Source: Candidatus Hermodarchaeum yapensis
GTDB lineage: Archaea; Asgardarchaeota; Hermodarchaeia; Hermodarchaeales; Hermodarchaeaceae
Assembly (NCBI GenBank): GCA_016840405.1
Contig: JAEOSK010000003.1
Location: 1-64,000, forward strand
Direction of reading: 5' to 3'
DNA length: 64,000 bases
The notes below the pieces were generated by a model that searched no databases, was not told the DNA's origin, and saw nothing but the letters and a program-made list of their open reading frames with translations. Position 1 is the first letter of the stretch. Each line of letters opens with the position of its first letter. A program made the translations under genes and the position numbers. Of this stretch, positions 19,819 to 41,004 are shown piece by piece.

Positions 19819-20865
19819 ATGATCATGAATCGGTCGATGTTGAATGCGGTCATTGTTGTGGGGTTATGTTGTCTGCCGTTGGTTCTCATTGGAGTGGTTA
19901 GCTATTCACGTTCGCAAATTACCCCTAATGACCAGTTTTTCACATTACAGATTGGTGATATCCCCCAAATTGATATCTCGAACTGGACACTGGTTATCGA
20001 TGGACAAGTTGACAATCCAATCAATTTCACTTATGCTGAGTTCATTGCATTGCCCAGTGTCTCGATTCGCGCCACATTACAATGCGTGGATGGTCCTTCG
20101 GGAACGGCGATATGGCGAGGTGTCCGCATCAGTGATTTACTATCTTTAGCGCAGGTGAACCAAAGTGGGTTTGACGTCGCCTTTTATGCCGTTGACGGGT
20201 TCTCCTCATCACTCACCTTACAAGAGGTGAGTACAGGAGATGTCCTCTTAGCCTATGAGATGAATGGTGAAACCCTTCCTACGGCGCATGGGTTTCCGGT
20301 CCGTGTTGTGGCGCCAGAGCAGTTTGGCTACAAGTGGGTCAAATGGGTCGATCATATCGAAGTGGTGGATTATGATTTTCGTGGGTTCTGGGAATCGCGA
20401 GGATGGGCTGATGATGCTCGCCTGTCACCAATTTCACATTGGGGACTGCATGCGTTTTTATTTTCCATCTCGTTTGTATTCGGAGCTATCGCTCTGGTGA
20501 CCGGGCTGAAATTTTCACGACGGACGGATTATTTCATCGATTTGCCAGATCTTGTTTCCACGAACTTTCATCGAATTGTTTCTGTCGCATATATTGGAAC
20601 TGTTGGAGTAGTATTCGTTTATTGGGCAATCCAAACGCTACTTCTCAAAGGAGCCTTGCTTTACTCGTTTCATGGTATTGGGGCATTAGTAGTGCTCATC
20701 CTGCATGTGCTGGGTGGAATAACGGGTCGAACCACGAGAATGACTAATCGGTCAAACCGAGATCTTCACTACAAATTGAACTTTGCCGGGTATTTGGTGT
20801 ATACACTTACGATAACAACAGGGTTTCTGTTGGCGTTTGGAGCGAGTTTCATTTACATTTACTAG
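19819..20865 (+). CDS. Molybdopterin-dependent oxidoreductase (sulfite oxidase family) fused to a His-containing 4-TM domain
   Basis: TLQCVDG Mo-ligand Cys, LLAYEMNGE, HGFPVR, GYKWVKW, GFWESRG; C-terminal TMs with several His. Confidence 0.85.
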   Translation: MIMNRSMLNAVIVVGLCCLPLVLIGVVSYSRSQITPNDQFFTLQIGDIPQIDISNWTLVIDGQVDNPINFTYAEFIALPSVSIRATLQCVDGPSGTAIWRGVRISDLLSLAQVNQSGFDVAFYAVDGFSSSLTLQEVSTGDVLLAYEMNGETLPTAHGFPVRVVAPEQFGYKWVKWVDHIEVVDYDFRGFWESRGWADDARLSPISHWGLHAFLFSISFVFGAIALVTGLKFSRRTDYFIDLPDLVSTNFHRIVSVAYIGTVGVVFVYWAIQTLLLKGALLYSFHGIGALVVLILHVLGGITGRTTRMTNRSNRDLHYKLNFAGYLVYTLTITTGFLLAFGASFIYIY

Positions 20866-21495
20866 TTAGTCGAATTCTTTCAGAAGTTTATATCCTTGAA
20901 AAGCAGACCAAAAGATGAGGCCGTAGACAGCAACCTTCTGCATGGCAGCACCCTTAATAATGGGGACATTGAAGATCATTCCAATTAGATATGCGTAGGC
21001 AAGAATGGCGACGATGATTCCAATGATGGCATACAAGTTTTCATAGTCCTTGTTGAGAAGGATAGCAATTGTGTATACGATAATCGCGGACGAAATGAAA
21101 AAGAAAAACGCGTATGTTGAGTAACCGTGGAGGCTTGGAAATACATCCATGGCGAAGATTGCAAGACTTGAAACGAAAACTGCTGCAAGAAAACCAAAGA
21201 TGGTTCCTAGCCAGCTAAGGTAGAATAATCGTTGTGTACCTGTGAATATCGTTCGGATAGCGAACCAGAAGGGGATTGAACAGGCCGCTACTAGTGTACA
21301 GGTGAAAGCAAAGAGAAACCAGTTTTGAGGAGTAGGTACAACATTAGTAACAGCTTGTCCAAGTTGACTGAAGCTGTTAAAGAAGAAGTTGTAGCCGCCA
21401 GGGTAGATGAGCATGATGATGGCGGTGATGATGATGAATTGGATGCCTCCAAAGATGCCAAGGTAGGCTCCGAGTCGTTTCCATGAGATAGCTAT
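20866..21495 (-). CDS. DUF998-like membrane protein
   Basis: YPGGYNFFFNSFSQLG motif; frame extends upstream of ATG 21414 through a further TM helix to ATA codons behind AGGAGG SD. Confidence 0.7.
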   Translation of the reverse strand: MAISWKRLGAYLGIFGGIQFIIITAIIMLIYPGGYNFFFNSFSQLGQAVTNVVPTPQNWFLFAFTCTLVAACSIPFWFAIRTIFTGTQRLFYLSWLGTIFGFLAAVFVSSLAIFAMDVFPSLHGYSTYAFFFFISSAIIVYTIAILLNKDYENLYAIIGIIVAILAYAYLIGMIFNVPIIKGAAMQKVAVYGLIFWSAFQGYKLLKEFD

Positions 21496-21691
21496 AACTA
21501 TCCCTCCTGAAATTCAGTGAGTAATGACAGGGAGTAGTCCTTTGATTGAATGTTTCTTATAAAATACGATGTAACCACCTCTAAAGTTTAGAGATTGACC
21601 AGGATTGGTGAAAGGCTCGGATTGGTGAAAGGAAAGTGCTTTTCATAGGATGGCTTAACTGGAAATATCCATCAGAGGAGTCAAGCAAAAG

Positions 21692-22128
21692 ATGAATCCG
21701 TTGACCGTGTTTCCCTACAAGAATATGCGAATGATTGTAGACCTCATTGCAGAGGGGAGATCGGTGTACGGCAAATTGCTGCAGTAACGGGCATGTGTAG
21801 CTTTGATTCGACTGAAGCCACAGACATGTTAGCATATCTTTCTACATTTGGACGCGTGGAACACACTGATGAGGGATGGGTAATTCACCCTGAGGATGAT
21901 GAATCGGTATATGAGCGATTCCGTACGCGGTACATAGAAACCGCTGAATCAATTCTCAAACAATTATCAACAGAAGCAAAGACCGTGTCAGAGTTATCGA
22001 ACGAGACGAATCTCTCAAACGAAACGATTGATTTGTTTTTACCATTCTTAGCTGAAATCTCGATACTTGGTGTTATAAGCCGATGTTCCACGGATTGGCC
22101 AATAACTTGGTGTCAGGCTTCTTCATGA
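21692..22128 (+). pseudogene. Double winged-helix-like protein, apparently frameshifted in a G run (or a sequencing error)
   Basis: ATG 21692 (GAGGAG SD) frame MNPLTVFPYKNMRMIVDLIAEG joins EIGVRQIAAVTGM... if one G is added at 21753-21756; second HTH-like KTVSELSNETNLS. Confidence 0.5.
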
Positions 22129-22847
22129 AGAAGCGTATTTAGTTGAGGTAGGATAACCCCAGCTTTTTCTTTGAGATGCACATCGGCAATCGGTGTTAAT
22201 GGTGTGGCTTCAACGTTAACTTCGAGAACGTGCCCTCCGGCGCGTTTCACGATGAAAGGAAAAGAAGCTGAGGGTTGAATGAGGGCAGAGGTGCCAATTA
22301 CGATAATCGTATCTGCTTGTTCGAGCTGAGAAAAGACTTCATTCATTATTGTGGAGGGTAGGCTTTCACCGAACCACACCACATCTGGTCGTAGATTTGC
22401 TCCACAATCAGCACAGGTCGGAATGCCGATTGCGGGTTCTGAGAGGTGTGTTCGGTATGAACAAGCAGTGCATTTGACTCGCCAAATATCTCCATGGACT
22501 TCCAAGACTTTTCCAGATCCTGCTTGTCGGTGTAAACCATCAACATTTTGCGTAATCACAGCTTTGAGAATGCCCCGTTTTTCCCACTCAGCTAGGGTTA
22601 AGTGAGCAGGATTAGGTTGGCATTTGGAGATGAGGTTTTGTCGCCAGGTGTACCACTCCCAGACGAGTTTGGGGTTTTGAGCAAATGCCTGAGGGGTTGC
22701 TAAGTCCATGGCATTGTATTGACGCCAGAGACCATCCTTTCCTCGGAAGGTGGGGACATTGGATTCTTTAGAGATTCCTGCACCGGTTAAAGCGATGAGA
22801 TGATTTGCGTTTCTGATGAAGCTCGTAGCTGAGGAGAGTAAATCCAT
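22113..22847 (-). CDS. cobB: NAD-dependent protein deacylase (sirtuin)
   Basis: TGAGISKESNVPTFRG, TQNVDGLH, HG, two CxxC, RPDVVWFGE, GTS. Confidence 0.95.
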   Translation of the reverse strand: MDLLSSATSFIRNANHLIALTGAGISKESNVPTFRGKDGLWRQYNAMDLATPQAFAQNPKLVWEWYTWRQNLISKCQPNPAHLTLAEWEKRGILKAVITQNVDGLHRQAGSGKVLEVHGDIWRVKCTACSYRTHLSEPAIGIPTCADCGANLRPDVVWFGESLPSTIMNEVFSQLEQADTIIVIGTSALIQPSASFPFIVKRAGGHVLEVNVEATPLTPIADVHLKEKAGVILPQLNTLLHEEA

Positions 22848-23002
22848 GGTTGAGAAAAACTCCTATGCGTAGATGGAAGATTTAAGAAATCATGTAAAAG
22901 GACCGTATAAATAAATGGGAAATATCTGTCTCCGAAATCAGTAGGATAGAGTTTATCTTTTATACTGAACTATGTGCATACCCAGTCCAAGGTGTACGTT
23001 GA

Positions 23003-23557
23003 ATGACTGAGGAACGGACTTCTTTTGTTGCACGAGTGTTTGATGTCATATTCGGAGTAATATCAATTGGATTAGCAACCACGGTGTTCTGGCTCCCACA
23101 ATCTTACATCACATTGATGATTATCCTCTTAGGCCCCGCAGTTTTCTTCTTGGGTATTTCTCGGATAATTTATGGGTATCGTGAGAACCGCTTGCCATCT
23201 AGGCTGCGTATCCTCAACTTCATCTGTGGCTTTGTCTTAATGATTTTCTCCGTACTAGTCATGATTTCTAATTACTTGGGAGGAATATATTGGATTCTTA
23301 TCCTCGCCATCGGTTTGATGGTGTTCGGTCTTAACACTTTATTAACTGGGCAACTTTCACCGGTACGAGCTACCTGGTTCCGAATAATGGAAATTGTCGA
23401 CGGCGCTGCTTTAGTCGTCTTGGGAGTGGTTGTAGCGATTTTTTCCCAATTAGGTGCAATAAGGCTCTTGTACATTCTAGCCATTGGAATAGCCTATGCT
23501 GGGATTTACCTCATTATCGTCGGAATTATAGGTCGCCAAATCTTTATAACGAACTGA
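23003..23557 (+). CDS. DUF308/HdeD-like membrane protein
   Basis: Six short TM helices in repeated pairs. Confidence 0.6.
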   Translation: MTEERTSFVARVFDVIFGVISIGLATTVFWLPQSYITLMIILLGPAVFFLGISRIIYGYRENRLPSRLRILNFICGFVLMIFSVLVMISNYLGGIYWILILAIGLMVFGLNTLLTGQLSPVRATWFRIMEIVDGAALVVLGVVVAIFSQLGAIRLLYILAIGIAYAGIYLIIVGIIGRQIFITN

Positions 23558-23595
23558 TTCACCGAAAGGAACGTTGCAACCACCGGTGATAGAAT

Positions 23596-24159
23596 ATGTC
23601 TGAATCGTCGCGCTGGTCGTGGTCCTGGGGTCCACGCTTTGCCATTATATTCTTACCAAATATCCTCTATTTTGTAATTCTCGGTATTGGTTTAGTTCTA
23701 ACTCGGTATCTTACTCCCCTCATTCCCTGGCAATTATTACCCATTGTAATTTATCCATACCCATGGATATGGCGCTACATTGAACTCTTTGCGGGAATGA
23801 TACTTCTGATTTTAGCGGTTATGTTCATTGTTTGGGGCGTTACTTCGATGGGAAGAAAACGGGCGCAGGGAGAGGAAATTAATCTAAGTCGGCGATCCTC
23901 GCAGTTGGTGACAACAGGTGCATATTCGTATTGTCGTCACCCCCAAACCCTAGGATTCATTCTTGCTACTCCAGCAATTGCTTTGTTATTCGACTTTGTT
24001 CCACTCCTTATTGTTGCCATAGTTTTCACACCGCTTCAGCTAGCGTTGCTGGGTTACGAGGAAATTGAGTTGTTACGGCGGTTTGGTGATTCTTATGGTA
24101 AATATCGTGAAGCGGTTCCCTTTCTTATTCCTCGGGGAAAACGTGTTGTGACCTCGTAG
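23596..24159 (+). CDS. Isoprenylcysteine carboxyl methyltransferase / PEMT family membrane methyltransferase
   Basis: LVTTGAYSYCRHPQ and EEIELLRRFGDSYGKYREAVP motifs. Confidence 0.85.
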   Translation: MSESSRWSWSWGPRFAIIFLPNILYFVILGIGLVLTRYLTPLIPWQLLPIVIYPYPWIWRYIELFAGMILLILAVMFIVWGVTSMGRKRAQGEEINLSRRSSQLVTTGAYSYCRHPQTLGFILATPAIALLFDFVPLLIVAIVFTPLQLALLGYEEIELLRRFGDSYGKYREAVPFLIPRGKRVVTS

Positions 24160-26419: not shown

Positions 26420-28996
26420 TTAATCAGAACGAGCTTGGTTAAGGACTTTAAAGATCTGTTCTGAGTTGATAATTTTTTCACTTTCAACTTTGAATTCCAC
26501 AGGATGAACGAGAATTGCATTTGTTTGATCGCCACCTATTCCACCGTGATTACCGATGAGTTCTTCGAAGGCTGCCACTGAACCATCTTCATACACAGGA
26601 CTCATAAGAATGAGTTCACCACTACTAGGAAAGTTAGCAAGGCGAAGTAATTGTTGTCTTCGAACTTCTTCGTTTCCATAAGGTGTGAGAGGGTTCTGCC
26701 CCTTGATTTTTCCCGTCCTCAACTCTATTGCACCCTCCCCACTAAGAAGGACCGGTCCAAGTTTTTCATCCATGACAATGGCAAAGCCAATGCCCTGATG
26801 AGCAACGAGTTTTGATATGAAGCCAGGAAATTGAGTTTCAAGATTTTGCAATGTTTCACGTTTTTCTGTTGTTGTGAAATAGATCTGAGCAAGATTCCCT
26901 GAAGCACATACGAGGACATCTTTTGCTTCTACTTCTTTGTCTAGGGGAGCTTCATCTTTTTTACTAGCCTGCCGGTGGAAATATTTCAGTACTCCATGTT
27001 CTTTTTTCTCTTTTTTCGCTGCAGCTCGACCGGCATTCATGTCATCGACGAGTCCTGCAACGTAACCTCGATGGGCATCAAGGGCTTCCATTTCGCCTAC
27101 CGAGGCTTTGCCTTCGAGAAGCTCTGTGATGAGATCTTTGAGTGAAATGTTGTATCGTTGCTTGAAGGTCCAACCAGCAGACTGACCATGATCTGAAAGA
27201 ATGAACAGATGGTAAGGCCTGGGTGCGTAGTATTCAATAACGTGTAGAATTCGTCGTATTTGCTTATCCAGACCATGGAGGGCTTTGAGGGCATCTGAAG
27301 TCAATGGACCGGAGTGATGTGCAATTTCATCGTAACCTAAATAGGTCACGTAAATTGCAGGTGATCCGCGAAGAATGTCTTGAATTACCATTGATGTGGC
27401 GACATCACGCATGAAGATGTTAGTTGCGGCACGAACAATAGGATAGGCATGCGAGAGTCGGTTCATTCGTGGTTTTCTACGTGTGATGGTTTGTTTGATG
27501 ATTTGTCCAATTTCGACAAATATATCCCAGATCGTGAAGATGATGCTACGATTCATGGCATAGGGATCGAGTAGATAGTAATAGAGGTCCTGGCTTCTAC
27601 GTCGCCCTGCCTCTTCATCTTCTTGGGTAAGGGTTGACATCGTGAAAAAGGAATACGAGGCATCACCGCTGATGAGATTGCTTACACTTGAGCCGCCGTT
27701 ACGGAGAATGCCTTGACCGGAAGAGGCTCGCTGGTCGATTTCTTGAGCGTTTTTGGGGTTGTTGGAGACCATCATACGTTTTTCAGGTTTTAGATACCAA
27801 CGAAAGGCGGGGATGTCATTATTATTTCCATGCATGATACCAGCTTGGCACGATGAAGTCATGGAAGGAATTCCACAATCCCAGTGTGTGAGTATGTGAC
27901 TTCCACGTTTTAGCAATCCTTGAAGCGTAGGCATGTATTCGCGTTTTAACGCCTTTTGAATGGCTGTGTAACTAAGACCATCAATTTCCACTGCGACTAA
28001 GGCATGAGTTTGAGGGATATCAATTGTTGCCATTTCTTCCCGGATTTGTTTGGCGACATAATCATTGAAGAAAGAGATATCATCATCAAGACCTACGATA
28101 TTCACGACAAGGGCATTAACAGCTGCTAGAATGAGTCCAGCGGCTAAAGCGGCAATTAAATTGACCACATAGAATCCTGGGAGGATACGGGGTAGTTGCC
28201 ATAATATGATGCCATTAATGAGGAACATGAAAACGAATGAAATGATAAACCCCAGCCACCAGCGGGCAATTAATGAAACGAGTTTAGTGAACAGGGGACG
28301 AATTAACACGTTGATAACCGCAATTATTGCGACTGCGATGTAAACTACCCCGAGCATCGTAAGTAGATCACTTGTAACAAAACCCATTCCAGCATACAAG
28401 AAGGTGGTAACTAGTAAGCAGAGCGCATCTATGTTCCAGATGAGGATAAAACGCCCCATTCTAATATTGTATCGCGGTTGCTCCTCCAGTTGCCAAATCA
28501 GAAAAGCTCCAACGAAAAAGATGTTGATTGCCAGGATTCCGAAAAATAGGCTTAAAGCTAAATCTAGGAGGTTAAGAGGACCAATCGGCTGAAAGGGGAA
28601 AAGAACTCTGTAAACATAGCTAACTATTCCTCCAGTGATAGCGAAAACGGACACAGCCACTCCTAAAGTGATGGCCCAGGGTTTCTTGTACGCGGTTCCT
28701 AATGCAACTATCATTCCAACCAACGAAACGGTTGTTAGGATAGCACCCAACAGAGTAAAGCCATTGACAATGAAGGGAACGGTGAGCCCTACATTAATGA
28801 TTTCATTGATAATCTCAACATAGAGAGAGGGATCATTCGCATGTGCATAATTTAGGATTTCATTAAAAAGCGATGAAAGACCTGAGATAAATACTCCCAA
28901 CATCGCAAACCCGAACATCATTACAAAGTCGATGCCTGCAAAAATTCGTACAATTCGGGGCGCTCGAATAACTTCATGCACTTTTTTATCAGGCAG
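26420..28996 (-). CDS. Membrane protein: extra TM region, 4-TMS holin-like domain and alkaline-phosphatase-superfamily (type I phosphodiesterase) domain
   Basis: NVLIRP holin-IV-like motif; EIDGL, SMTSSCQAGI, GYDEIAHHSG, SDHGQ and HGGIGG; probable CTG start at 28996 (GTG at 28981 is the alternative). Confidence 0.8.
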   Translation of the reverse strand: MPDKKVHEVIRAPRIVRIFAGIDFVMMFGFAMLGVFISGLSSLFNEILNYAHANDPSLYVEIINEIINVGLTVPFIVNGFTLLGAILTTVSLVGMIVALGTAYKKPWAITLGVAVSVFAITGGIVSYVYRVLFPFQPIGPLNLLDLALSLFFGILAINIFFVGAFLIWQLEEQPRYNIRMGRFILIWNIDALCLLVTTFLYAGMGFVTSDLLTMLGVVYIAVAIIAVINVLIRPLFTKLVSLIARWWLGFIISFVFMFLINGIILWQLPRILPGFYVVNLIAALAAGLILAAVNALVVNIVGLDDDISFFNDYVAKQIREEMATIDIPQTHALVAVEIDGLSYTAIQKALKREYMPTLQGLLKRGSHILTHWDCGIPSMTSSCQAGIMHGNNNDIPAFRWYLKPEKRMMVSNNPKNAQEIDQRASSGQGILRNGGSSVSNLISGDASYSFFTMSTLTQEDEEAGRRRSQDLYYYLLDPYAMNRSIIFTIWDIFVEIGQIIKQTITRRKPRMNRLSHAYPIVRAATNIFMRDVATSMVIQDILRGSPAIYVTYLGYDEIAHHSGPLTSDALKALHGLDKQIRRILHVIEYYAPRPYHLFILSDHGQSAGWTFKQRYNISLKDLITELLEGKASVGEMEALDAHRGYVAGLVDDMNAGRAAAKKEKKEHGVLKYFHRQASKKDEAPLDKEVEAKDVLVCASGNLAQIYFTTTEKRETLQNLETQFPGFISKLVAHQGIGFAIVMDEKLGPVLLSGEGAIELRTGKIKGQNPLTPYGNEEVRRQQLLRLANFPSSGELILMSPVYEDGSVAAFEELIGNHGGIGGDQTNAILVHPVEFKVESEKIINSEQIFKVLNQARSD

Positions 28997-31029: not shown

Positions 31030-31578
31030 TTAATCGGCGAAATGAATACGAAACTCGCAGGTCGGATCTCCTTGGAGGCGACCCTTGGTTTGGGTGACCC
31101 GAGCAGTATAGGAGAGTTTGAGGTTGTCAATCCAGTGTTGAAGAAGACCTTCAAGCATACCGGAAACAAGTTCACAATACCGTAAATCGAGGACATTTTC
31201 CATGGTGTCTTGTTGACAGATTGGACAGAATTCTGTAGTCAGATGGAGGGTGCGGTCATCAGAAAATTCCAGTTTGTCTGGCGGATGTCCTGTGGCAAGG
31301 TTCCAATTTCGTGATAGGTACTCGTCAACACGGTTCAAGAATAAATCCGGAGAAGTGGGAAAATAGTTCTCTGGAGGTTGCCCGTACCGACTTACTAGTC
31401 CAAGAAGAAGTGGGGTCGTCATATTCTTTCCCAACTCGTGAAGAGCTCTTTCGATGGCCGTTGGATTTCCTTGGTGTTCGACAGAGAGAGCTTCAACGAG
31501 CCGCAGGTAAAAAATTGGTAGTAAAGGTCCTATAAAGAGAGGTTGTTTCTCTTTGGGAGCATTTTCGTCAGGGGTCAA
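31030..31578 (-). CDS. V4R-domain protein (Bet3/TRAPP-related fold)
   Basis: CPIC...YCELVSGMLEG...QTKGRLQGDPTCEFRI V4R pattern. Confidence 0.7.
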   Translation of the reverse strand: MTPDENAPKEKQPLFIGPLLPIFYLRLVEALSVEHQGNPTAIERALHELGKNMTTPLLLGLVSRYGQPPENYFPTSPDLFLNRVDEYLSRNWNLATGHPPDKLEFSDDRTLHLTTEFCPICQQDTMENVLDLRYCELVSGMLEGLLQHWIDNLKLSYTARVTQTKGRLQGDPTCEFRIHFAD

Positions 31579-31616
31579 ATTCTTACACCATTTGTCATCG
31601 AGTTGGTTTTGAGGGA

Positions 31617-32870
31617 TTATTCTTCTTCGGATTCTTCAGGTGGTTTATCAGTTGGTTGTTCTTTTGCCGCCACTTTGGCAGGCTTTTCTTTAAGGGTGGC
31701 TTTTGCTCGTTCTTTGCGGGAGGTTTTTGCGGGGGCTCGTTCACGGAGTTGGCGCTCTGCTTCTGCTAACGGACCTGTTGGAATTGTAGCGGGTAGGGTG
31801 GGGGCTTGCCCGGTTAAACTGGCGATTTCTACTGACTTTTCAGCCCATAGGACTTGGGCAGGATGTACGCCTGCAACACGCCAATAGAAGAAGCGATCCC
31901 AAAGCTTCTCTTCAATGGAGAGCACTCCAGCTGACAGAGAAACCAGATTAAGTCCTAGCCTGCTAAACGCCTTAGCAACAACGCCTCTGACTTCATTACG
32001 AATTTCAGCTTCATCGCGTAATGCACTCATGAACTCATGTTCTGAGAATTGGTCTCGCATGACGTTATCAATGAGCGTTTTGAGGTATTCGATGAGTTCT
32101 TGGGAGTTCATCGGAATTCGTTGCTCATGAAGAGTCGATATGAGTTTTCGAGAGTCATCGACGACAAACGCGTAAAGCAATCCATAGGGCTCCTGCAGCC
32201 GAATTGAACGTTTGTAAGTTATTTTCCCTTCAGCACCTTTAACGGGAATATCATATTCTTCTCGGCGCCACGATTTACCTGTCCAGGTCAGTCGGGCAAG
32301 ATCCGATGTCTGTGTTACGCCTGTATTGGCATAAACATGAACACGACCTGTGTAAATGAAAACAACATTTGCCTTGTAACCTTGTCCACGCCAGCCTGTC
32401 TTGATTAGCGGTGACTGAAATGTCTCTATGGTGTATGGTGTTTCGCTGGGTTCCCAAACCTCATAAACTTTAAACTCTCGATCCCCGTTATTGAATTCCT
32501 CTCCATAGCCACAACAGATCCAATCAGGGGGAACATAGATTTTCGCATCTTTTTCAAGAATTTCAATTTGCTCCATATCCCGTTCAAGATCTGGGGGATG
32601 ATAGATGAATTGGGGAAGCCGTGAATCGGACTCGGTTATTTCAGTGCCTGAAGCCAGGGTCCGTGTCAATGTTTTACCTGTCGAAAAGCCTCCAAAAGCT
32701 GCAAGCCGTGTCAGTCGCCTGAATGCGCGGATGGCTTGAGCACCCCGATCCTTATGGGGAGCTTGAATCATTTGGGTCCAGTAATTTTGACTTCCCACAT
32801 CGCCAATTGGGATACTAGGGTGAGGTCCTAAGACTGGATCTGGAGCAAGTAAACAAATTGTTTTCGCCAT
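31617..32870 (-). CDS. Soluble SPFH/band-7-like domain protein with a charged C-terminal tail
   Basis: VFIYTG...VPVKG...YGLLY...IRNEVRGVVAKAFSRLGLNLVSLS resembles the band-7 core; no TM helix. Confidence 0.55.
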   Translation of the reverse strand: MAKTICLLAPDPVLGPHPSIPIGDVGSQNYWTQMIQAPHKDRGAQAIRAFRRLTRLAAFGGFSTGKTLTRTLASGTEITESDSRLPQFIYHPPDLERDMEQIEILEKDAKIYVPPDWICCGYGEEFNNGDREFKVYEVWEPSETPYTIETFQSPLIKTGWRGQGYKANVVFIYTGRVHVYANTGVTQTSDLARLTWTGKSWRREEYDIPVKGAEGKITYKRSIRLQEPYGLLYAFVVDDSRKLISTLHEQRIPMNSQELIEYLKTLIDNVMRDQFSEHEFMSALRDEAEIRNEVRGVVAKAFSRLGLNLVSLSAGVLSIEEKLWDRFFYWRVAGVHPAQVLWAEKSVEIASLTGQAPTLPATIPTGPLAEAERQLRERAPAKTSRKERAKATLKEKPAKVAAKEQPTDKPPEESEEE

Positions 32871-32932
32871 AGTTGAAACCTCCTTCTCTTATCTGCGGTA
32901 TTTTCTAGCCTCATATAACTTCTGGTGCTATA

Positions 32933-33781
32933 TTAGAAGCCTGTGATTTCATATCGGTCTCCTAGTTTTTCTCTTTTAGCTTCTTCTTCAGCTCGCCATT
33001 CCTCTATAAGCTGCTGGATTTTTTGTTGAAGAATATCATTTGAAGAATGGGCAATCCACTCTTCTGAAATATGTACATGGTCACCTCGTAGTGCTAATGT
33101 TCGTGAGACTGAATCGAAATAGCCACCTTGACCTTTCTTTCCGAGAAACTTGACCAGCCCATTGAAGACTATTTGGGCTTTTTTCGGATAGGCATCTAAC
33201 ATGCTTTCGGGCACTATTGTCATCTGTATGTTGATACGTTGTCCGACCAAATCATAGATTGTTGATTCTGTTGTTTCTCCATGTTTTACACCGCTTTCAA
33301 GAAGCGTATAGAAGTCAATGGGTCCAGCGAAACATTGCTTGAAGAAATCATGGCTCGTTCGCTGGAAGTCAAGGAGTTCACCGGTTGCTTTCACATATAC
33401 CAATTCTTGCACTCCATCTGATCTCTCAATTGCCAAATTCATATGTTTCTTCCATTTTGCGTAACTACCCGGATGTTCCTGTAGTTCAGGCAAGTATACC
33501 AAAGGGACATTGATGAATACTTTACTTTGTTTGAAGGCTTTTTCTAGCTCGCCAGCATACGGCTCTGCAGGTGGGAGACCTTCGACTTCTGCAATAAATG
33601 CTACACGATAGCTGGTAAGAACGAGATGACCATCTTGTCCACGCACAAGCATTGGTCGCTCCCCTGCGCGAATACCCTTGGCAATTTTGGCCTTGGCTAC
33701 CAGAATGAGAGTCTCTTGTTCCTTTGGTAAGATGCTTTTGGCCAATGTTAGCTTTTCAGTTGGTTCCAGTTCCCATGTCAA
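32933..33781 (-). CDS. Hypothetical protein with N-terminal GRAM/PH-like domain and possible C-terminal winged-helix/PCI-like segment
   Basis: DGHLVLTSYRVAFI (G-x-L-x-L-T-x-x-R-x-x-F); GYFDSVSRTL near the C-terminus. Confidence 0.45.
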   Translation of the reverse strand: MTWELEPTEKLTLAKSILPKEQETLILVAKAKIAKGIRAGERPMLVRGQDGHLVLTSYRVAFIAEVEGLPPAEPYAGELEKAFKQSKVFINVPLVYLPELQEHPGSYAKWKKHMNLAIERSDGVQELVYVKATGELLDFQRTSHDFFKQCFAGPIDFYTLLESGVKHGETTESTIYDLVGQRINIQMTIVPESMLDAYPKKAQIVFNGLVKFLGKKGQGGYFDSVSRTLALRGDHVHISEEWIAHSSNDILQQKIQQLIEEWRAEEEAKREKLGDRYEITGF

Positions 33782-33841
33782 CGTTTATGACCATCCTTTC
33801 CGCGATATCCTGATGTTACCCTATACTGATTCGATATTTGA

Positions 33842-35992
33842 TTATTGTCCAAGGAAACGTTCAGCAAATTGACTGAATTTATTCAGAGTATCCTGTGAAA
33901 TACTAGGTTGTACTGATGCTAGTGCATCCTGAAAGTGATTCATGCTGACCTTTGAAGCGTCTGGGTTTTCACGGATAGCAGCCAACACCGCTTTTCGACA
34001 GACATTTCCGATATCAGCACCTGAAAAGCCTTCAGTTGTCGATGCCAGTTGATCTAGATTTACATCTTCAGTAAGAGGCATTTTTCGTGTATGGACTGCA
34101 AAGATTGCACGTCGAGCGGCTAAATCTGGTGGAGGTGTGAATACAAAGATATCAAAACGCCCTGGACGAAGCAAGGCAGGATCAATGATATCAGGACGGT
34201 TTGTTGCCGCAAGCACGACAACTCCCTGAAGCTCTTCCATCCCATCAATTTCCACAAGGAGTTGGTTTACTACACGTTCACTTACGCGACTGTCAAATCC
34301 TGAACCACGGCGAGGTGCAAGATTATCTAATTCGTCTATAAAGAGGATTACAGGAGCTGCTTGCCTAGCCCGGCGAAAGATCTCTGCAATAATTTTCTCA
34401 GATTCTCCCACCCATTTACTCATAACTTCAGCGCCACGTACACTAATGAAATTTGCTTGGCTTTCAGTGGCAACGGCTTTTGCGAGTAGTGTTTTACCTG
34501 TTCCGGGTGGTCCAAATAAGAGGACACCCTTGGGTGGATCGATGTTAAAACGTGTGAAAACATCGGGTCGATTGATGGGGAGTTCAACGGCTTCACGAAG
34601 TGCCTGTTTTGCTTCCTCCATTCCACCAACATCATCCCATTGAACCATGGGAATTTCGACGGAAATTTCACGTAACGCAGAAGGTTCCACGAGCTGTCTA
34701 GCGGAGCGGAAATCATCTGCTGTTACTACGATTTGATTAATCAGTTCCGGGGGAATTTGCATTTGTTGTTCTTCAATCTGTGGAAGGACACGTCGCAAAG
34801 CGCTGAGTGCAGCTTCTTTGACTAAAAAGGCTAAATCTGAACCCACAAATCCGTGTGTATTGTGTGCCATTTGCTGCAGATTCACTGATGGATCCAAGGG
34901 TACTCCACGAGTGTGTACTTGCAGGATGTCAAGCCGTCCTCGTGTATCGGGAACATTGATCAAGATTTCGCGATCAAAACGTCCAGGTCTTCGTAGTGCA
35001 GGATCAAGAGCTTCGAGTCGGTTTGTCGCAGCGATGACAAAAACCTGGTCACGATCTTTGAGACCATCCATCAGGGTTAGAATTTGAGCAACGATACGGC
35101 TTTCCATTCCCCCCGTTTCACGCCGTGATGCAATAGCATCGATTTCATCAATAAAGATAATGGCAGGTTTGTGTTTCTCCGCTTCTTGGAAAACGTCTCG
35201 CAGGTACTTTTCTGATTCGCCATAATATTGACTGACAATCTCAGGACCGTTTATTGCCCGAAAAAAGGCTTCGCTTTCTGTAGCCACTGTTCTAGCGAGT
35301 AACGTTTTTCCGCAACCGGGTGGACCATGGAGCAACACTCCACGAGGAGGCTCAATTTTTAATCGAGCAAACAGTTCCGGATGTCGAATGGGGAGCTCGA
35401 CGATTTCACGAATCCGATGAATAGCGACATCCAGTCCTCCCACATCATCGTATGTTGCAGTGGCAACAGTATCAACTTCTTCTGGAGCTTCCTTAAGGAG
35501 TTGGAGATCGGTACTTGCTGTAATTATGACATTCCCCGTGGGCACTGTCTTAGCCACGTAGAATTTGGCTTCGCCGAGGGCAAAAGCTGCTCGCCCTACG
35601 GCAATCACGGTATCTTTCTTGACTGGTTTATCCATGAGATTGGATTTCAAAAGTGATGCCGCTAATTCCTGCCGATATTGTAGTTCTTCCCCCTTCATTG
35701 GCGTTAATACAACATTTCTTGCGGGTTGTGCATCGGTTCCTTGTAGCGTAACTGTGTCACCTAAACGTACTCCCGCATTTAGCCGTGATAATCCATCCAT
35801 CTTGATGACGGCTCGATTGTGAATAGAAGAATCCCTGAGTGCAAGAGCACATACACTCTTTTTGCCGACTATTTCGACAACAGAACCATCAGAAATCTGC
35901 AATTGGTCTAAAATTGTTGGATCAACACGAACCGTGAAACGACCCACATCAACGGCGCTTGCTTCAGCAACACGAACCGACGCTACAGTCAC
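33842..35992 (-). CDS. cdc48: CDC48/VCP/p97-family AAA+ ATPase
   Basis: N-domain plus two AAA modules ([16 protein letters not shown]; IFIDE, LFIDE; [22 protein letters not shown]). Confidence 0.95.
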
Positions 35993-36098
35993 GCTAGTCT
36001 CACACCCCTATTTGATGTATCAGGAGAGGGCACATATAGACCACGCGAGTAGCATATTTAACTCCAGCCCCTGATAGGAGATATAGAGTAGAGAGTCT

Positions 36099-36995
36099 AT
36101 GACCACCTCAAAGCCAATTTCAATACTTTTTGATGCTGCGCATAATGAGGAGGTAATTCTTCAAGAGCCTGAACTTTCCAGTCTGTGTCTTCTTTTAGAA
36201 ACGAATGGAATGAAGACTGGCTCCCTTGATACATCGATCACGCTGGAAGAACTCACGAATTTTAAAGTCATAGTCCTAGGAAATCCTCGGGAATCTAAAT
36301 TAAAATCAAAAGAAATCAAAGCTTTGCAATCTTTCGTTGAATCAGGAGGAGGTTTGCTGTTAATCAGTGGAGCAACAATTTTCGGGAAAGGAGGAGATTC
36401 AGCCCGGCTTACAAACCTGAATGCCCTTGCGACCAAATTCCACTTTGAATTTTCGGAGAAAGCCATTAGTCGTCAGTTAGAAGGAGATTTGTCCGATGCT
36501 GCAGCTAAAGACGAGATGATAATGGCTGTTCCTGCAGCACAGCATCCCCTTGTAAAAGGAATCAGCCACCTTCTATTCACAACAAGCACAAGCATCAAAG
36601 CAGAGGACACTGCAACCCACCTTTTTCGAACGGCAAATAGTCCAGGGAATCCAACAAATGTCATTACTATTGAGTTGGACAAGGGACGTGTCCTCGCAAT
36701 GGGTGGAGCCACACCCTTCTTCAACGACTATGTTGGAATCCATGACCATGAGGTTTTCATTATTCAAGCTTTTCGCTGGTTGGCGGGTCATCCAGTGAAT
36801 GTCCCTGTAATTTCTTTGACTCCTGATACAGAGATGAGTGAAGTTGTTAGTGCGAATGAAGCAATTGCTGACCTGCAACTACAACTAAACCAGATTGAAC
36901 AGGAACTAGCTGGTCTAAAGAAGGTCATCAATACGAGTTTGAAAGAAATGGAGAAGATTATTCGTCAATTTCAAGACGAAAAGGACGAGTCCTAA
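36099..36995 (+). CDS. GIFT/IFT52-like (DUF4350) domain protein with C-terminal coiled coil
   Basis: ILFDAAHNE...ITLEEL...VIVLGNPRE...EIKALQSFVESGGGLLL...TNLNAL...GRVLAMG...FRWL; heptad-rich tail. Confidence 0.7.
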   Translation: MTTSKPISILFDAAHNEEVILQEPELSSLCLLLETNGMKTGSLDTSITLEELTNFKVIVLGNPRESKLKSKEIKALQSFVESGGGLLLISGATIFGKGGDSARLTNLNALATKFHFEFSEKAISRQLEGDLSDAAAKDEMIMAVPAAQHPLVKGISHLLFTTSTSIKAEDTATHLFRTANSPGNPTNVITIELDKGRVLAMGGATPFFNDYVGIHDHEVFIIQAFRWLAGHPVNVPVISLTPDTEMSEVVSANEAIADLQLQLNQIEQELAGLKKVINTSLKEMEKIIRQFQDEKDES

Positions 36996-37000
36996 GATAG

Positions 37001-37675
37001 TTACTCTCGAGTCTGGGTTGTTGAAGAAACGAGTTGTTCGACGGTTATTCGTCGTTCTAACATTATGGCATGATGGTCCTGTAATGCTTGAAAGTTAACG
37101 ATGACTTGAAAAAGTGGTTGTTGGAGGACAATTGCAAGTTCTTCGAGTGATCGATTATCATCGATGGCTTCCAGAAGAGGTTGGAGTGTTTGAGGGAGAG
37201 AGCTTTGGGGAAAAGTGTGAACACGAACGGGAACATAGCGCTCTGAGATCGCTAGGGGTCGAAATAGTGTATCAATTATCGGTACAAAATCTCGGAAATG
37301 ACTGAGATCACCGAGCCAATTTTCTAACAGCTTTTCATGGCGCATTTCAAGCAGGGTTATTAAAGTACACATTCGTCGCCGGATCACGGGTAAATCATGG
37401 GTTGAAAATGCGGCTACATAGATATTTTTTCCGTATTCTAAGAGGATCTTGACATCCTCTCGGTCGATAATTCGTAAACGGCCATCTTCTCGTTCCAGGG
37501 ATTTCAACTGTTGCCCATCATCAGATATTCGTCCAACAAGATCTGATAGAAACATGCTCACCGCTGAGAGGAACCCGGTGACAAGGTCTGGTTCCATATT
37601 TTCAATTTGGAAGTCCTTTTGGAGCAGAGTACGTCCATCTCTGTAAACAACATAGAGACTATACAATGTTGCCAT
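37001..37675 (-). CDS. Longin-like domain plus C-terminal winged helix (NPRL2-like architecture)
   Basis: LYVVYRDGRTL...DLVTGFLSAVSMF...ILLEYG...W-x-GD-xx-F longin pattern; YVPV...LLEAIDDNRSLEELA wHTH. Confidence 0.65.
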   Translation of the reverse strand: MATLYSLYVVYRDGRTLLQKDFQIENMEPDLVTGFLSAVSMFLSDLVGRISDDGQQLKSLEREDGRLRIIDREDVKILLEYGKNIYVAAFSTHDLPVIRRRMCTLITLLEMRHEKLLENWLGDLSHFRDFVPIIDTLFRPLAISERYVPVRVHTFPQSSLPQTLQPLLEAIDDNRSLEELAIVLQQPLFQVIVNFQALQDHHAIMLERRITVEQLVSSTTQTRE

Positions 37676-37776: not shown

Positions 37777-40428
37777 TTACCAGGCACCTCGTCGGGCAAT
37801 CGCGCGTATTTCACTGATGATTTCAGTGGGTGTCGTCAGTTCATCGCCGAGATATGTGCGTCCTGATGTGATGAATGCCATATAGTAGCCTAGAAAGGGA
37901 ATTAGCTTGTCTTCTTTGAGACCAACTTCGATGATGCTAGATGTATCGAGTTCTTTCGCACGTTGGTGAAGCCAATCAGCAATTACTTTGTGGTGGCGTT
38001 TTTGTCGAATGGGAAAGAATTCGTGATGCAGATTAATAGTTACTAGTGGTATACGGTCTTTTGCCAGGAGATGGCATTGATGGAGGACATCAGCCACTGC
38101 TTCGGGAAGTCCAAGGTCAGGGGTATCTGATTTGCTTAGCTGAATATTTGGGAGGTAGTCACTAAAGACTACAATGAGGGGAAGGGTGCCTGAGTTTCGG
38201 CGACGTTCGCGCTTTATGGTCTCATGTGCTCGTTTGAGTCCTGCGGCTAGAGGTGTGTATCCGGATAGGCGCAGTGTCATGAGTTTTGCGACTAAACGTG
38301 TCCAGTTTGTGGTGGGAGCTTGGACTTCTGCTGCGCCCCAATCTTTTAGGGCAATAAGCCCGACGCGATCTCGAGTGCCTTCAAGGCAGTTTTTGAAGGC
38401 TATTAGAGAAAGCTGGAGTTTGTCGAAGTTTTTGAGCATGGACACGCTGAGATCAACGACAAAGATAATGGTGATTGGGGTTCTGCTAAGGAACCGTTTT
38501 TCGCGGACATCTTCCAGTTGAATTTTCACCCTAGGTGTTTGTTTTGTGGTAAGGTCAGTATGGATTGCTGCTGCAGATATTGTGGCGGGGAGATGGATGT
38601 TACGTGGAGATCCTTGAGGAAGACTTGAACCCTGTATGACACCACTCTCGGCAAGTCGTGTTGTTCCGGTTCCAGCTCTTCGACCCACTTGGCGGATCGA
38701 CCATTTGGGTGCGCGTTGTCGTCCGAAAAAGCGTGGTTCGAGTAATTCCTCTAGATGGAACAAGGGTGTGCCTTCATCTAATCGGATGAGCTTCGCTGAA
38801 TCCGTGGGACTCGACGGAGCGGATTGCTGTGAAGGAGTCGTTTTACTAGAAGATGAGGGTTTTGAACTCGTAGTTGCAGGTGCTGTAGAGTCGCCCTTAT
38901 GTTTTGTAGGACGGATTTTTGAACCGGGATCAGGGGGTCGATCAGCTTGAGCTAGCGACGGCATGACTAAACCAGCTTTGCGTCGATAGCGCATTACACG
39001 TTCAATTAGAAACAGTAGGCTAAATGCCAGAATACCACCAATGATGAAATTAATGGGAAAAATTAGAGTGCCTAAGAGGTAGCCAAATGCCGCCGTCATC
39101 ACCATAAAAGAACAGATAAGCGACGTGTATGCGCAGCGTCCAGGTGGCCCTCGGCTAGGCGGGGTTCCAAAAAAACGCTGTCCATCCTGATTACTATCTA
39201 GCGCGTGATGCTGTTTGAATTTGCTTGTAAGTTTCTTGTGTATATCTTTAGTAGCTGGATCTTTGTCTTTGGATTTGGGATCGGTCGTTTTTACTTTCTT
39301 TTTTGCCTCTTGAATGGTTGCGCTAATTTCTTCACGAGTTGGTGGTTCCAGGATGCCTCGTTGCCGTGTCCGGTGGCTTAGAGCAAGATTCGCGACAATT
39401 TCAACGTCCTCCGGAGTGACTTCTGCCCGTCCATCAAAAGCGGCGAATGCCATAGAAGTTTTGGCGATTACGATATCAGGACGAGCCCCATCCACTTGGA
39501 GGCGCGAGGTTAGGTTAGCTATAACTTCCATGACCTCAGCAGGAATTTGAACAACACCCATACGTTCTCGAGCAGCGACAATCTCCTCACGTAATTTGTT
39601 CTCTTCATCCATCCATTTTGCACTCATCGCTTTAGGATTGCGTTCGAAGGCGATATTTAATCGAATAATTTCGACTCTTTCGTCTATTGTGAAAGGGCGT
39701 TGAATTGCCACGTGAAGAGGAAAACGATCCAACAATTGAGGACGCAATTCGCCTTCTTCTGGGTTCATAGAACCGACAAAGATGAACCGAGCCGGATGGC
39801 TAATCGAAATTCCCTCTCGTTCAACTACATTGACACCCGTAGCCGCCGCATCTAAAAGCGAATCAACAATATGATCTGGGAGTAAATTGACTTCATCAAC
39901 ATAGAGAAGATTTTGATTAGCATCTGCCAAAATTCCCGGTTTGAGGGCTGCAACGCCTTCTCGGATGGCCCGTTCAACATCCAAACTACCAACCACCCGA
40001 TCCTCAGTGGCACTCAATGGGAGATTTACAACGCGCATTTTTTGCGTTACCGACGTGAGTTTTCGTTTCTTCTGAAGTTTTGCTGTACAAGCCTCACAAA
40101 CCCCACTTGGATCATCAGGGGCGCAACGAAATTTGCACCCTTTCACAACGGGAATGTCAGGAAGTAATGCTGCCAACGAACGTACGATGGTTGTTTTTCC
40201 GGTTCCCTTGGGACCAGTGATAAGAAGCCCACCTATGTGAGGATTAATGGCGTTGAGTAACAGAGCCAGTTTCAGCTCATCATGGTTGACAATTGCTGAA
40301 AAAGGAAGGACAGTGCGAGTGGCATCCATCTCTTCTGGTTCCAAGCTGTGAACCTCTACCACCCCTGTTCTTCTCCAGTTTAAAGAATTTTGGGAACAAG
40401 CACCACTCAAAGGAGTTTTTCCTACCAA
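37777..40428 (-). CDS. Mg-chelatase-type (ChlI/ChlD) AAA+ ATPase fused to a vWA domain, with an internal TM hairpin
   Basis: [46 protein letters not shown]; vWA DLSVS...GYTPLA...VFSD; true start probably TTG 40344 or ATG 40329. Confidence 0.85.
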
Positions 40429-40485
40429 TTGAGGATAATTTATACAGGTAAAAAATTAAAGCGATTAGAGTAAAAGGTGCGTTTC

Positions 40486-41004
40486 ATGACGACTCAGACA
40501 ACCAAGGATTTCCGCGATGGTCTCGCAACCGCATATCGGGCTGCTCGAAGCCATCTTCGATATCTTTTAACGGATTTAACACCTGAGCAGGCTGCAACAG
40601 AACCTGCCCCCGAGTCCCGAACCATTCTGTATTATTTGACTCATATTGCGAACTCTGAACTCTATTGGTTCGCGGCATCAGGACGGAAAGTTGCTGTCTA
40701 CGCCAAAGAGGTTCCACTTGACATTGCTATCGACCTTCTTGACGAAGTCAAAGATCGTGTGCTACACGAACTCAAAGAATGTTTGGATGAGGAGCTTGTT
40801 TTTCAACCGCCAACTGAAGGCGTTAAGCCTAGTCTTGGGTGGGTTGTGTCCCGAATTACTCTTCATGCGCTTTATCATAGTGGTGAAATCATTTACACGC
40901 GGTATGCGGTTGGAGGGTCGGATTTACCTAACGATGTAGTCGAAGAGTCGTGGAGTCGTATGATGGATGCAATGATGCATTTGATTTTTATGGCCCAACA
41001 ATAG
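40486..41004 (+). CDS. DinB/DUF664 family protein
   Basis: LTHIANSELYW and HALYHSGEI His motifs. Confidence 0.75.
   Translation: MTTQTTKDFRDGLATAYRAARSHLRYLLTDLTPEQAATEPAPESRTILYYLTHIANSELYWFAASGRKVAVYAKEVPLDIAIDLLDEVKDRVLHELKECLDEELVFQPPTEGVKPSLGWVVSRITLHALYHSGEIIYTRYAVGGSDLPNDVVEESWSRMMDAMMHLIFMAQQ

Follow-up and report, generated by a model that had tools for sequence, protein, structure and literature searches.

The question raised by the locus described here is whether six neighbouring genes of Candidatus Hermodarchaeum yapensis work together as one system, and what such a system could do. The genes occupy positions 31030-37675 of the window, that is, of the whole 64,000-nucleotide (nt) stretch of contig JAEOSK010000003.1 that was analysed. 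They encode a Cdc48-family ATPase which we call Cdc48-A (P0004), an orphan protein (P0003), an SPFH protein (P0002), a V4R/TRAPPC3-like protein (P0001), a GIFT-domain protein (P0005) and a protein that combines a putative longin-like N-terminal domain with a winged-helix-like C-terminal region (P0006). A preliminary description of the locus had taken the six genes for one dedicated p97-dependent system of membrane remodelling or trafficking. The first part of this notion stood, as the six genes do belong together: they make up one insertion/deletion block, they stay intact when the flank changes, and the families of the two end genes are linked elsewhere. The second part, the membrane or trafficking function, found no support. 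We lean, with somewhat less than even confidence, towards the reading that the six genes constitute an island specific to one genus of Hermodarchaeia, which was gained or lost in one piece and most likely serves as one system. The literature that we searched contains no description of this gene combination.

Inheritance of the six genes as one block

The comparison set consisted of 14 genomes of the genus and four of its sister genus (completeness of the latter 80-83%), and the assembly analysed comprises 2.7 Mb in 77 contigs (86% complete). Orthologs of P0001, P0002 and P0003 as well as members of the Cdc48-A clade were found in all 14 genomes of the genus and in none of the four of the sister genus, and the orthologs of P0006 follow the same phyletic pattern (14/14 and 0/4). 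GIFT orthologs are present in 13 of the 14 genomes and again in none of the four; elsewhere there are paralogs of at most 30% identity. The two genera are close, with common Cdc48 paralogs that are 79-91% identical. In three sister-genus genomes (G016, G017 and G018) the orthologs of the genes on the two sides of the block, AFOR (66-67% identical) and a ChlD-like AAA/vWA gene (58-61% identical), converge on each other across an interval of just 53-70 nt. Therefore, a single insertion or deletion accounts exactly for the six genes at 31030-37675. A run of four closely spaced, co-oriented genes is common in archaea, and it is the block-wise presence and absence that raises this grouping above chance. 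Because related genomes have the genes either as one block or not at all, they are probably one system.

The block also remains whole when its surroundings change: in one metagenomic lineage (L135) an ABC/FtsX pair and a small open reading frame (ORF) lie between the V4R gene and AFOR, and the six genes are still in order. The same six-gene order is seen in three other lineages (L136, L056 and L169). A comparison of gene order across related genomes had been proposed in the preliminary description as a check on the system. The order is indeed collinear across the genus, but the check does not apply as it was worded, since the orthologs are confined to one collinear genus-level lineage: twelve genes over 16 kb keep their order in every genome of the genus, and synteny within the genus is for this reason uninformative. 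Across 300 Asgard genomes, P0002 finds beyond the genus only partial matches to its SPFH domain, and its family among 5.8 billion clusters has 19 members, all at least 74% identical. Among the Asgard lineages searched, the island is confined to one genus-level lineage and is a lineage-specific feature, not an ancestral Asgard or proto-eukaryotic one. The sequencing runs that contain the stretch are DNA metagenomes of marine or estuarine sediment or of seawater (20 of 20).

The genes themselves are real, and all six ORFs lie as had been described, with four co-oriented genes on the minus strand and a GIFT gene that diverges from cdc48 at a distance of 106 nt (Table 1). The spacers in the minus-strand run P0004-P0003-P0002-P0001 measure 60, 62 and 38 nt, and the convergent ends of the GIFT and P0006 genes are 5 nt apart. 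The six ORFs are intact in ten related genomes. Differences between the orthologs of P0003 and of P0001 are most frequent at third codon positions (~0.6), less so at first (0.22-0.31) and least at second positions (0.11-0.20); therefore, P0003 and P0001 are real coding genes under purifying selection. GGAGG-type ribosome-binding sites precede the internal genes of the minus-strand run, and together with the common strand and the short spacers they give the run a layout typical of a predicted operon, for which we infer co-transcription.

Table 1. Genes of the island and conserved DNA elements between them (positions in the window)
Feature	Positions	Strand	Description
P0001	31030-31578	-	V4R/TRAPPC3-like protein, 182 aa
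P0002	31617-32870	-	Divergent YdjI-type (Band_7_1) SPFH protein, 417 aa
Conserved 62-nt spacer	32871-32932	-	TATA-like TTAT(A/T)TGA ~45 nt before SPFH start; GGAGG Shine-Dalgarno
P0003	32933-33781	-	Orphan protein, 282 aa
P0004	33842-35992	-	Cdc48-A, 716 aa
Near-invariant 36-nt element	36041-36076		cdc48/GIFT divergent region; TTAAATAT (TATA-like) flanked by GGCGCC-type palindrome
P0005	36099-36995	+	GIFT-domain protein, 298 aa
P0006	37001-37675	-	Longin-like (putative) N-domain and winged-helix-like C-terminal region, 224 aa

A third Cdc48 paralog

The assignment of P0004 to Cdc48 was corroborated, as the protein scores 916 bits against TIGR01243 (cut-off 802.65) and carries, in Pfam, the CDC48_N (65.6 bits) and CDC48_2 (25.3 bits) domains, both over their cut-offs, followed by two AAA domains. 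It has the Walker A motif GPPGCGKT, Walker B motifs that include DELD, arginine fingers and the aromatic pore loops QYYG and KWVG, and the Walker A and B motifs, the arginine fingers and both pore-loop aromatics are invariant across the genus. In the Cdc48 tree it forms a separate clade with a stem of 0.74, which lies outside the two paralog groups common to both genera. Judged by its motifs and its place in the tree, P0004 is a third, genus-restricted Cdc48 paralog and a bona fide CDC48-family ATPase. The idea that its N-domain is specially diverged was rejected, because this domain is 30-42% identical to those of the other paralogs, compared with 37% between the ordinary two.

The C-terminus of P0004 reads FLGQ, whereas the two other Cdc48 paralogs of the genome end in PYA and PFV. 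An HbYX tail is defined by a small or hydrophobic residue in the third-last and a tyrosine or phenylalanine in the penultimate position (PMC3493965). By this definition P0004 is without an HbYX tail, while both other paralogs carry a tail of the HbYX type, and docking of Cdc48-A on the proteasome is probably absent.

A separate observation concerns one of the ordinary Cdc48 paralogs (G000 contig C13, ~20200-23900, outside the window), which resides in an open frame of 1178 aa. Its portions similar to Cdc48 residues ~323 and ~319 are separated by an insert of ~430 aa, the size of an intein.

The V4R protein and the P0006 protein at the other end of the block

The Pfam matches of P0001 are borderline, with TRAPP at E 1.2e-3 and 19 bits (cut-off 27) and V4R at E 0.016 and 15.7 bits (cut-off 31), and each of the two families is matched by eight of ten P0001 orthologs at E <= 0.1 (best 1.5e-6). 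The V4R call made in the preliminary description was secured by the profile of P0001, which matches both TRAPPC3 structures solved from Thorarchaeota, 7YH3 (E 8.5e-5) and 7YH2 (E 5.9e-4); the CxxC motif, the YCE motif and the C-terminal cysteine line up in these matches. Four cysteines (C118, C121, C135 and C174) are invariant and constitute a putative zinc site. On this profile alignment P0001 is a homolog of the solved Asgard TRAPPC3 with a four-cysteine putative zinc site.

P0006, which had been called a longin, has no match in Pfam and none among PDB sequences, so that this call was not confirmed and the longin identity of its N-terminal domain is putative. Its orthologs show weak matches to HVO_A0114, HTH_47 and DUF742, and its look-alikes in the Atlas (0.90-0.94) are all from Asgard archaea, some of them with an HTH_47 or TrmB winged helix. 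The N-terminal domain recurs many times per Asgard genome and aligns with the N-terminal part of a protein in which it is fused to V4R. This protein is a 300-aa ORF of G027 (L162:1495-2394), where a P0006-type N-domain (E 1.3e-4) is followed by a V4R domain (probability 94.9%).

The families of the two end genes are also associated without fusion. A P0006-family gene precedes a co-oriented V4R paralog in at least five Asgard families (f1, f3, f6, f12 and f16). On G000 contig C59, a P0006-family protein of 159 aa is followed 66 nt later by a V4R paralog of 169 aa; the winged-helix region of the former matches that of P0006 (hhalign E 3.9e-5), and the latter matches P0001 at 85% probability and has the same cysteine motifs. 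V4R-containing activators occur in bacteria. By analogy, the pair of V4R and P0006 proteins can be read as a ligand sensor with a winged-helix regulator, and equally as a TRAPP-like pair. Genes of the P0006 and V4R types occur together in the block and stand side by side or fused elsewhere; a GTPase gene is not among the six.

On C59 (L137:2587-4966, outside the window) the genes of the P0006-family protein, the V4R paralog and an HMG-CoA reductase stand in a row on one strand, the reductase being a neighbour in this family only. This triplet might sense a ligand and thereby regulate the synthesis of isoprenoid lipids.

The SPFH protein

P0002 reaches 22.9 bits on Band_7 (cut-off 23.6) and 13 bits on Band_7_1 (cut-off 24) and is thus below the gathering scores of both, although the precomputed PF01145 match is found in 10 of the 19 clusters of its family. 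Residues ~158-357 align at tblastn E ~1e-13 with proteins of ~300 aa from another Asgard family, which reach 80 bits on Band_7_1 and have a zinc ribbon (CxxC...CxxC) at the C-terminus. The alignment over ~300 columns indicates that P0002 holds the entire YdjI-type SPFH core, to which a conserved N-terminal extension of ~100 residues and three inserts are added, and that its tail is rich in lysine and glutamate in place of the zinc ribbon. The profile of P0002 has no match among PDB sequences. Its AlphaFold2 model has a predicted local distance difference test score (pLDDT) of 50.5 overall and is better over residues 103-325. Residues 106-328 of the model match ~20 SPFH structures at Z 9.2-7, and the first unrelated row stands at Z 3.7; Foldseek alone gave E ~0.01, and the Z scores are from VIA re-alignment. 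The matched structures include prohibitin, HflK/C, flotillin, erlin (Z 7.9), stomatin and QmcA, and 7VHQ, 9CZ2, 8RRH and 9O9U are among them. The structure match and the alignment bear out the SPFH call of the preliminary description, and P0002 is a protein of SPFH fold that is homologous to bona fide Band_7_1 members.

No membrane anchor was found in P0002, whose maximum Kyte-Doolittle 19-residue window is 1.38, and the model has no long CC1 helix, showing only short helices after residue 330, where its confidence is low. Within the genus P0002 is 84-94% identical and is the best conserved of the six proteins. A canonical YdjI-like gene is also present in the genome, on contig C67. In another Asgard family, a canonical gene of the YdjI type with SPFH domain and zinc ribbon lies beside an Eco57I/MmeI-type DNA methylase gene in two of two genomes (L053:227-3311 and L047:1-2846).

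The orphan and the GIFT protein

P0003 had been described as a GRAM/PH-like (GLUE) protein, and this could not be confirmed. It has no match in Pfam, NCBIfam, PADLOC or PDB, a Pfam scan of the 15 members with the threshold relaxed to E <= 10 turned up no consistent match, and a HMMER profile searched against 1.84 billion representatives returned its own 50% cluster and one noise match (hhalign probability 8%). An AlphaFold2 model made with 15 orthologs has a pLDDT of 39.5. The language-model Atlas gives sub-threshold leads (0.85-0.87) to GRAM, BBS5, Vps36-GLUE and bPH_3 clusters, and a PH/GRAM-like N-terminal part is possible. P0003 has no similarity to P0006. Its C-terminal tail, LGDRYEIxGF, is invariant.

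The GIFT assignment of P0005 holds, with Pfam scores over the cut-offs for IFT52_GIFT (35.6 bits, cut-off 27.2) and DUF4350 (31.8 bits, cut-off 30.4). P0005 is cytoplasmic with a coiled-coil-like C-terminal tail. Four of the six folds are thereby established, namely those of Cdc48-A and of the SPFH, V4R and GIFT proteins.

Conserved DNA between the genes

An alignment of the spacers of nine genomes of the genus revealed two conserved elements (Table 1), each of which occurs once in the genome. The first is located in the divergent region between cdc48 and the GIFT gene, the rest of which varies. The TATA-like motif and the palindrome suggest that this is a candidate promoter/operator, from which cdc48 and the GIFT gene would be expressed as from a regulated bidirectional promoter. 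The second is the spacer before the SPFH gene, which is largely invariant while the divergence at synonymous sites is ~60%. A search of this spacer for RNA structure was negative (-2.7 kcal/mol, no covariation), and the SPFH and V4R genes may have a promoter of their own. The spacer between cdc48 and P0003 is weakly conserved, and that between the SPFH and V4R genes is unconserved except for Shine-Dalgarno-like sites.

Proposed mechanism and its weak points

If the island is one system, its core would be a specialised, motif-intact Cdc48 paralog without an HbYX tail. Cdc48-A would be a segregase or unfoldase that works independently of the proteasome, its target being an assembly for which the SPFH protein provides the scaffold, and the orphan P0003 could serve as adaptor. 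The V4R protein and the P0006-type protein would make up a ligand-sensing pair, which might either regulate the conserved promoter, as the winged helix suggests DNA binding, or recruit the machine. Physical contacts among the proteins, and any link to a membrane, are presumed in this scheme. Complex prediction with the orphan, of uncertain fold, as the partner of the Cdc48-A N-domain (residues 1-185), of the SPFH protein (residues 100-360) and of the V4R protein gave a score of 0.00, which speaks neither for nor against binding. The scheme as a whole would be a prokaryotic counterpart of SPFH-AAA+ membrane quality control, put together from several 'eukaryotic signature' folds, in which a Cdc48-orphan-SPFH machine is steered by a longin-like/TRAPPC3-like sensing pair; we consider this full version improbable.

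Several observations weigh against one system. The carriers of the block are one narrow lineage, collinear over 16 kb, so that the internal gene order is not independently replicated, and in the outgroup families AFOR and the ChlD-like gene are not adjacent, so that gain and loss of the block cannot be separated. At the 12 closest Cdc48 loci outside the genus no neighbour resembles any partner from the block. The closest relatives of P0002 in other Asgard families adjoin genes of a metallo-beta-lactamase-fold hydrolase and of an Eco57I-type methylase. P0003 is without a fold assignment. The conserved promoter-like sequence ahead of the SPFH gene suggests that the genes are transcribed in more than one unit. 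A transmembrane helix was predicted in none of the six proteins (highest Kyte-Doolittle 19-residue mean 1.58), and there is no ubiquitin-like, UBX, ESCRT-III/PspA or GTPase gene among the six.

The significance of the island is limited by its confinement to one uncultured genus. Within this limit, we know of no archaeal Cdc48 adaptor other than the 20S proteasome, and a paralog without the proteasome-docking tail, accompanied by three partner genes of its own, offers a specific starting point for finding one. The block also unites folds that are discussed as building blocks of eukaryotic membrane biology, namely Cdc48, SPFH, TRAPPC3/V4R, longin-like and GIFT. Additionally, the adjacency and fusion of longin-like and V4R proteins across Asgard archaea lead to a testable hypothesis on the role of Asgard 'TRAPP-like' proteins, namely ligand sensing coupled to a winged-helix protein.

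Alternative explanations

The strongest alternative, which we judge somewhat unlikely, accepts the island as co-inherited and divides it into separate units: a quality-control unit of Cdc48-A, perhaps with the orphan and the SPFH protein, a regulator pair of the V4R and longin-like/winged helix-turn-helix proteins, and an unrelated GIFT protein. The pair does stand alone elsewhere, and in this family beside HMG-CoA reductase, and the conservation of a promoter-like spacer in front of the SPFH gene speaks for separate transcription. The GIFT protein is the fastest evolving of the six, with 47-57% identity to most orthologs of the genus (88% to the closest relatives), against 72-87% for the others. 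However, the genes of the supposed regulator pair are at opposite ends of the block and enclose the other four, and all six have the indel and the phyletic pattern in common. Moreover, the GIFT gene, which should be unrelated, flanks together with cdc48 one near-invariant 36-nt candidate promoter element.

One would argue that the six genes are neighbours by history only, i.e. lineage-specific genes that piled up between AFOR and the ChlD-like gene and are functionally unconnected. The region evidently tolerates insertions, as an independent DinB indel is found 3 kb away. Such an accumulation would hardly be expected to yield four co-oriented genes with gaps of 38-62 nt and Shine-Dalgarno sites, or a block that is intact in every carrier, including the one with an altered flank. 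The linkage of the end-gene families elsewhere, by adjacency and by fusion, and the high sequence conservation (84-94% identity for the SPFH protein) are likewise at odds with it, and we regard this explanation as clearly unlikely.

The eukaryote-like interpretation closest to the preliminary description sees in the block a forerunner of endoplasmic-reticulum-associated degradation (ERAD) and of TRAPP, a proto-ERAD/proto-TRAPP system of membrane extraction or trafficking composed of p97-like Cdc48, an erlin-like SPFH cage, a GRAM/GLUE binder of lipid or ubiquitin and TRAPP-like longin and Bet3 subunits. The Cdc48, SPFH, TRAPPC3-like and GIFT domains are confirmed, the association of longin-like and V4R proteins is conserved, and erlin is among the structural matches of P0002. 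A cage is difficult to reconcile with an SPFH protein of the YdjI type, which has neither a transmembrane anchor nor a long coiled coil, and the GRAM/GLUE fold of the presumed binder is without confirmation. Ubiquitin-like modifiers, E3 ligases and UBX, SHP or VIM adaptor domains were not found in the six proteins or in the flanking genes, and the block holds no GTPase gene. The confinement of the block to one genus-level lineage implies, furthermore, that it is not ancestral to Asgard archaea. The membrane-remodelling or ERAD-like reading thus remains an analogy, because the SPFH protein is soluble and of the YdjI type, the partner genes are missing, GRAM/GLUE is unproven and the island is genus-restricted, and we hold it to be quite improbable.

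A further reading takes the block for a horizontally acquired island of mobile or defence genes, in which effectors and sensors would accompany an AAA+ ATPase. This would fit the restriction of the block to one lineage, the lack of P0003 homologs beyond its own cluster and the long branch of the Cdc48-A clade, but is most improbable. The block occupies one fixed locus across the 14 species of the genus and has a G+C content like its surroundings. Neither an integrase nor a tRNA gene was found, the block ends show no direct or inverted terminal repeats, and the AFOR/ChlD-like junction of the sister genus shows no target-site-like repeat. In PADLOC the block matches only generic AAA domains, and it has no relatives on IMG/VR viral contigs.

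Neighbouring genes

The ChlD-like AAA+/vWA fusion that flanks the island (37777-40428, minus strand) is conserved in the sister genus and hence lies outside the block; it has a strongly hydrophobic stretch near residue 457 (Kyte-Doolittle 2.32). Beyond it, at 40477-41004 on the plus strand, a DinB-family gene marks a second, independent indel ~3 kb from the block, since in the sister genus (L105) the ChlD-like and Macro-domain genes are ~44 nt apart with no DinB gene between them. On the other side of the island, the minus strand at 26420-28981 encodes an 853-aa protein that joins a holin-like region of four transmembrane segments to a type I phosphodiesterase/nucleotide pyrophosphatase domain; in some genomes of the genus (L016 and L021) the protein is matched in fragments only. 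The genomes of this one genus were deposited as Hermodarchaeota, Promethearchaeota, Odinarchaeota or Thorarchaeota, and the submitters' taxonomy is therefore unreliable.

Comparison with known systems

SPFH scaffolds are paired with AAA+ machines in HflK/C-FtsH, prohibitin-m-AAA and erlin1/2-p97. The island resembles these systems in that an SPFH protein, with an SPFH1/2 fold matched at Z 7-9, stands alongside an AAA+ unfoldase. In contrast to P0002, HflK/C, prohibitin and erlin are anchored in the membrane and form cages via long coiled coils, and the block has neither a protease domain nor ubiquitin machinery.

A closer relative of P0002 itself is YdjI/SamI of B. subtilis, a cytosolic SPFH protein that is recruited to membranes (PMC13713150). 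Both are Band_7_1 proteins without a transmembrane helix that are encoded, P0002 by prediction, in a short operon with partners. P0002 differs from YdjI in its ~100-aa N-terminal extension, its three inserts and the missing C-terminal zinc ribbon. The B. subtilis PspA-YdjGHI (SamGHI) module (PMC13713150; Scholz 2021 as cited in PMC11188069) comes with proteins that the block does not have, since there is neither a PspA/ESCRT-III gene nor a YdjG/YdjH-like membrane recruiter, and the ATPase partner in the block is a two-ring Cdc48.

In archaea, SPFH genes were found with ATPases of the Vps4/Cdc48 clade in the ESCRT-like loci 'Meth_adaptin' and 'Halo_adaptin' (Makarova et al. 2024, PMC11188069). 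The SPFH proteins of these loci, which carry a coiled coil and a zinc ribbon, lie beside such ATPases, one of them with a VAT-N-type N-domain, and to this extent the arrangement is similar to ours. These loci hold ESCRT-III/PspA-like, adaptin-appendage and GOLD proteins and a single-ring Vps4-like ATPase, whereas the block has none of these partners and a full two-ring Cdc48. In a cultured Asgard archaeon, SPFH 'baskets' have also been seen beneath the membrane (bioRxiv 10.1101/2025.11.06.686947).

Forouzan et al. (2012, PMC3493965) provide a precedent for such a Cdc48 paralog with CDC48-C of M. mazei, which lacks the HbYX motif and fails to activate the 20S proteasome. Like Cdc48-A, it is one of several paralogs and is without the penultimate phenylalanine or tyrosine that its sister paralogs retain. 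Unlike Cdc48-A, it has no described dedicated operon partners.

For the proposed sensing pair, the reference is the study of Thorarchaeota TRAPPC3, in which a four-cysteine zinc site and ligand cavities were found and a longin-TRAPPC3 fusion of Heimdall was reported (Tran et al. 2024, PMC10933270). The published TRAPPC3 proteins were studied alone, and an association with a Cdc48 paralog and an SPFH protein was not found in the literature searched. The likeness extends, nevertheless, from single residues to domain architecture: P0001 matches the Thorarchaeota proteins (7YH2 and 7YH3) in its profile and shares the same four cysteines with them, and the longin-TRAPPC3 fusion has the same architecture as the ORF of G027, in which a P0006-type N-domain is joined to V4R.

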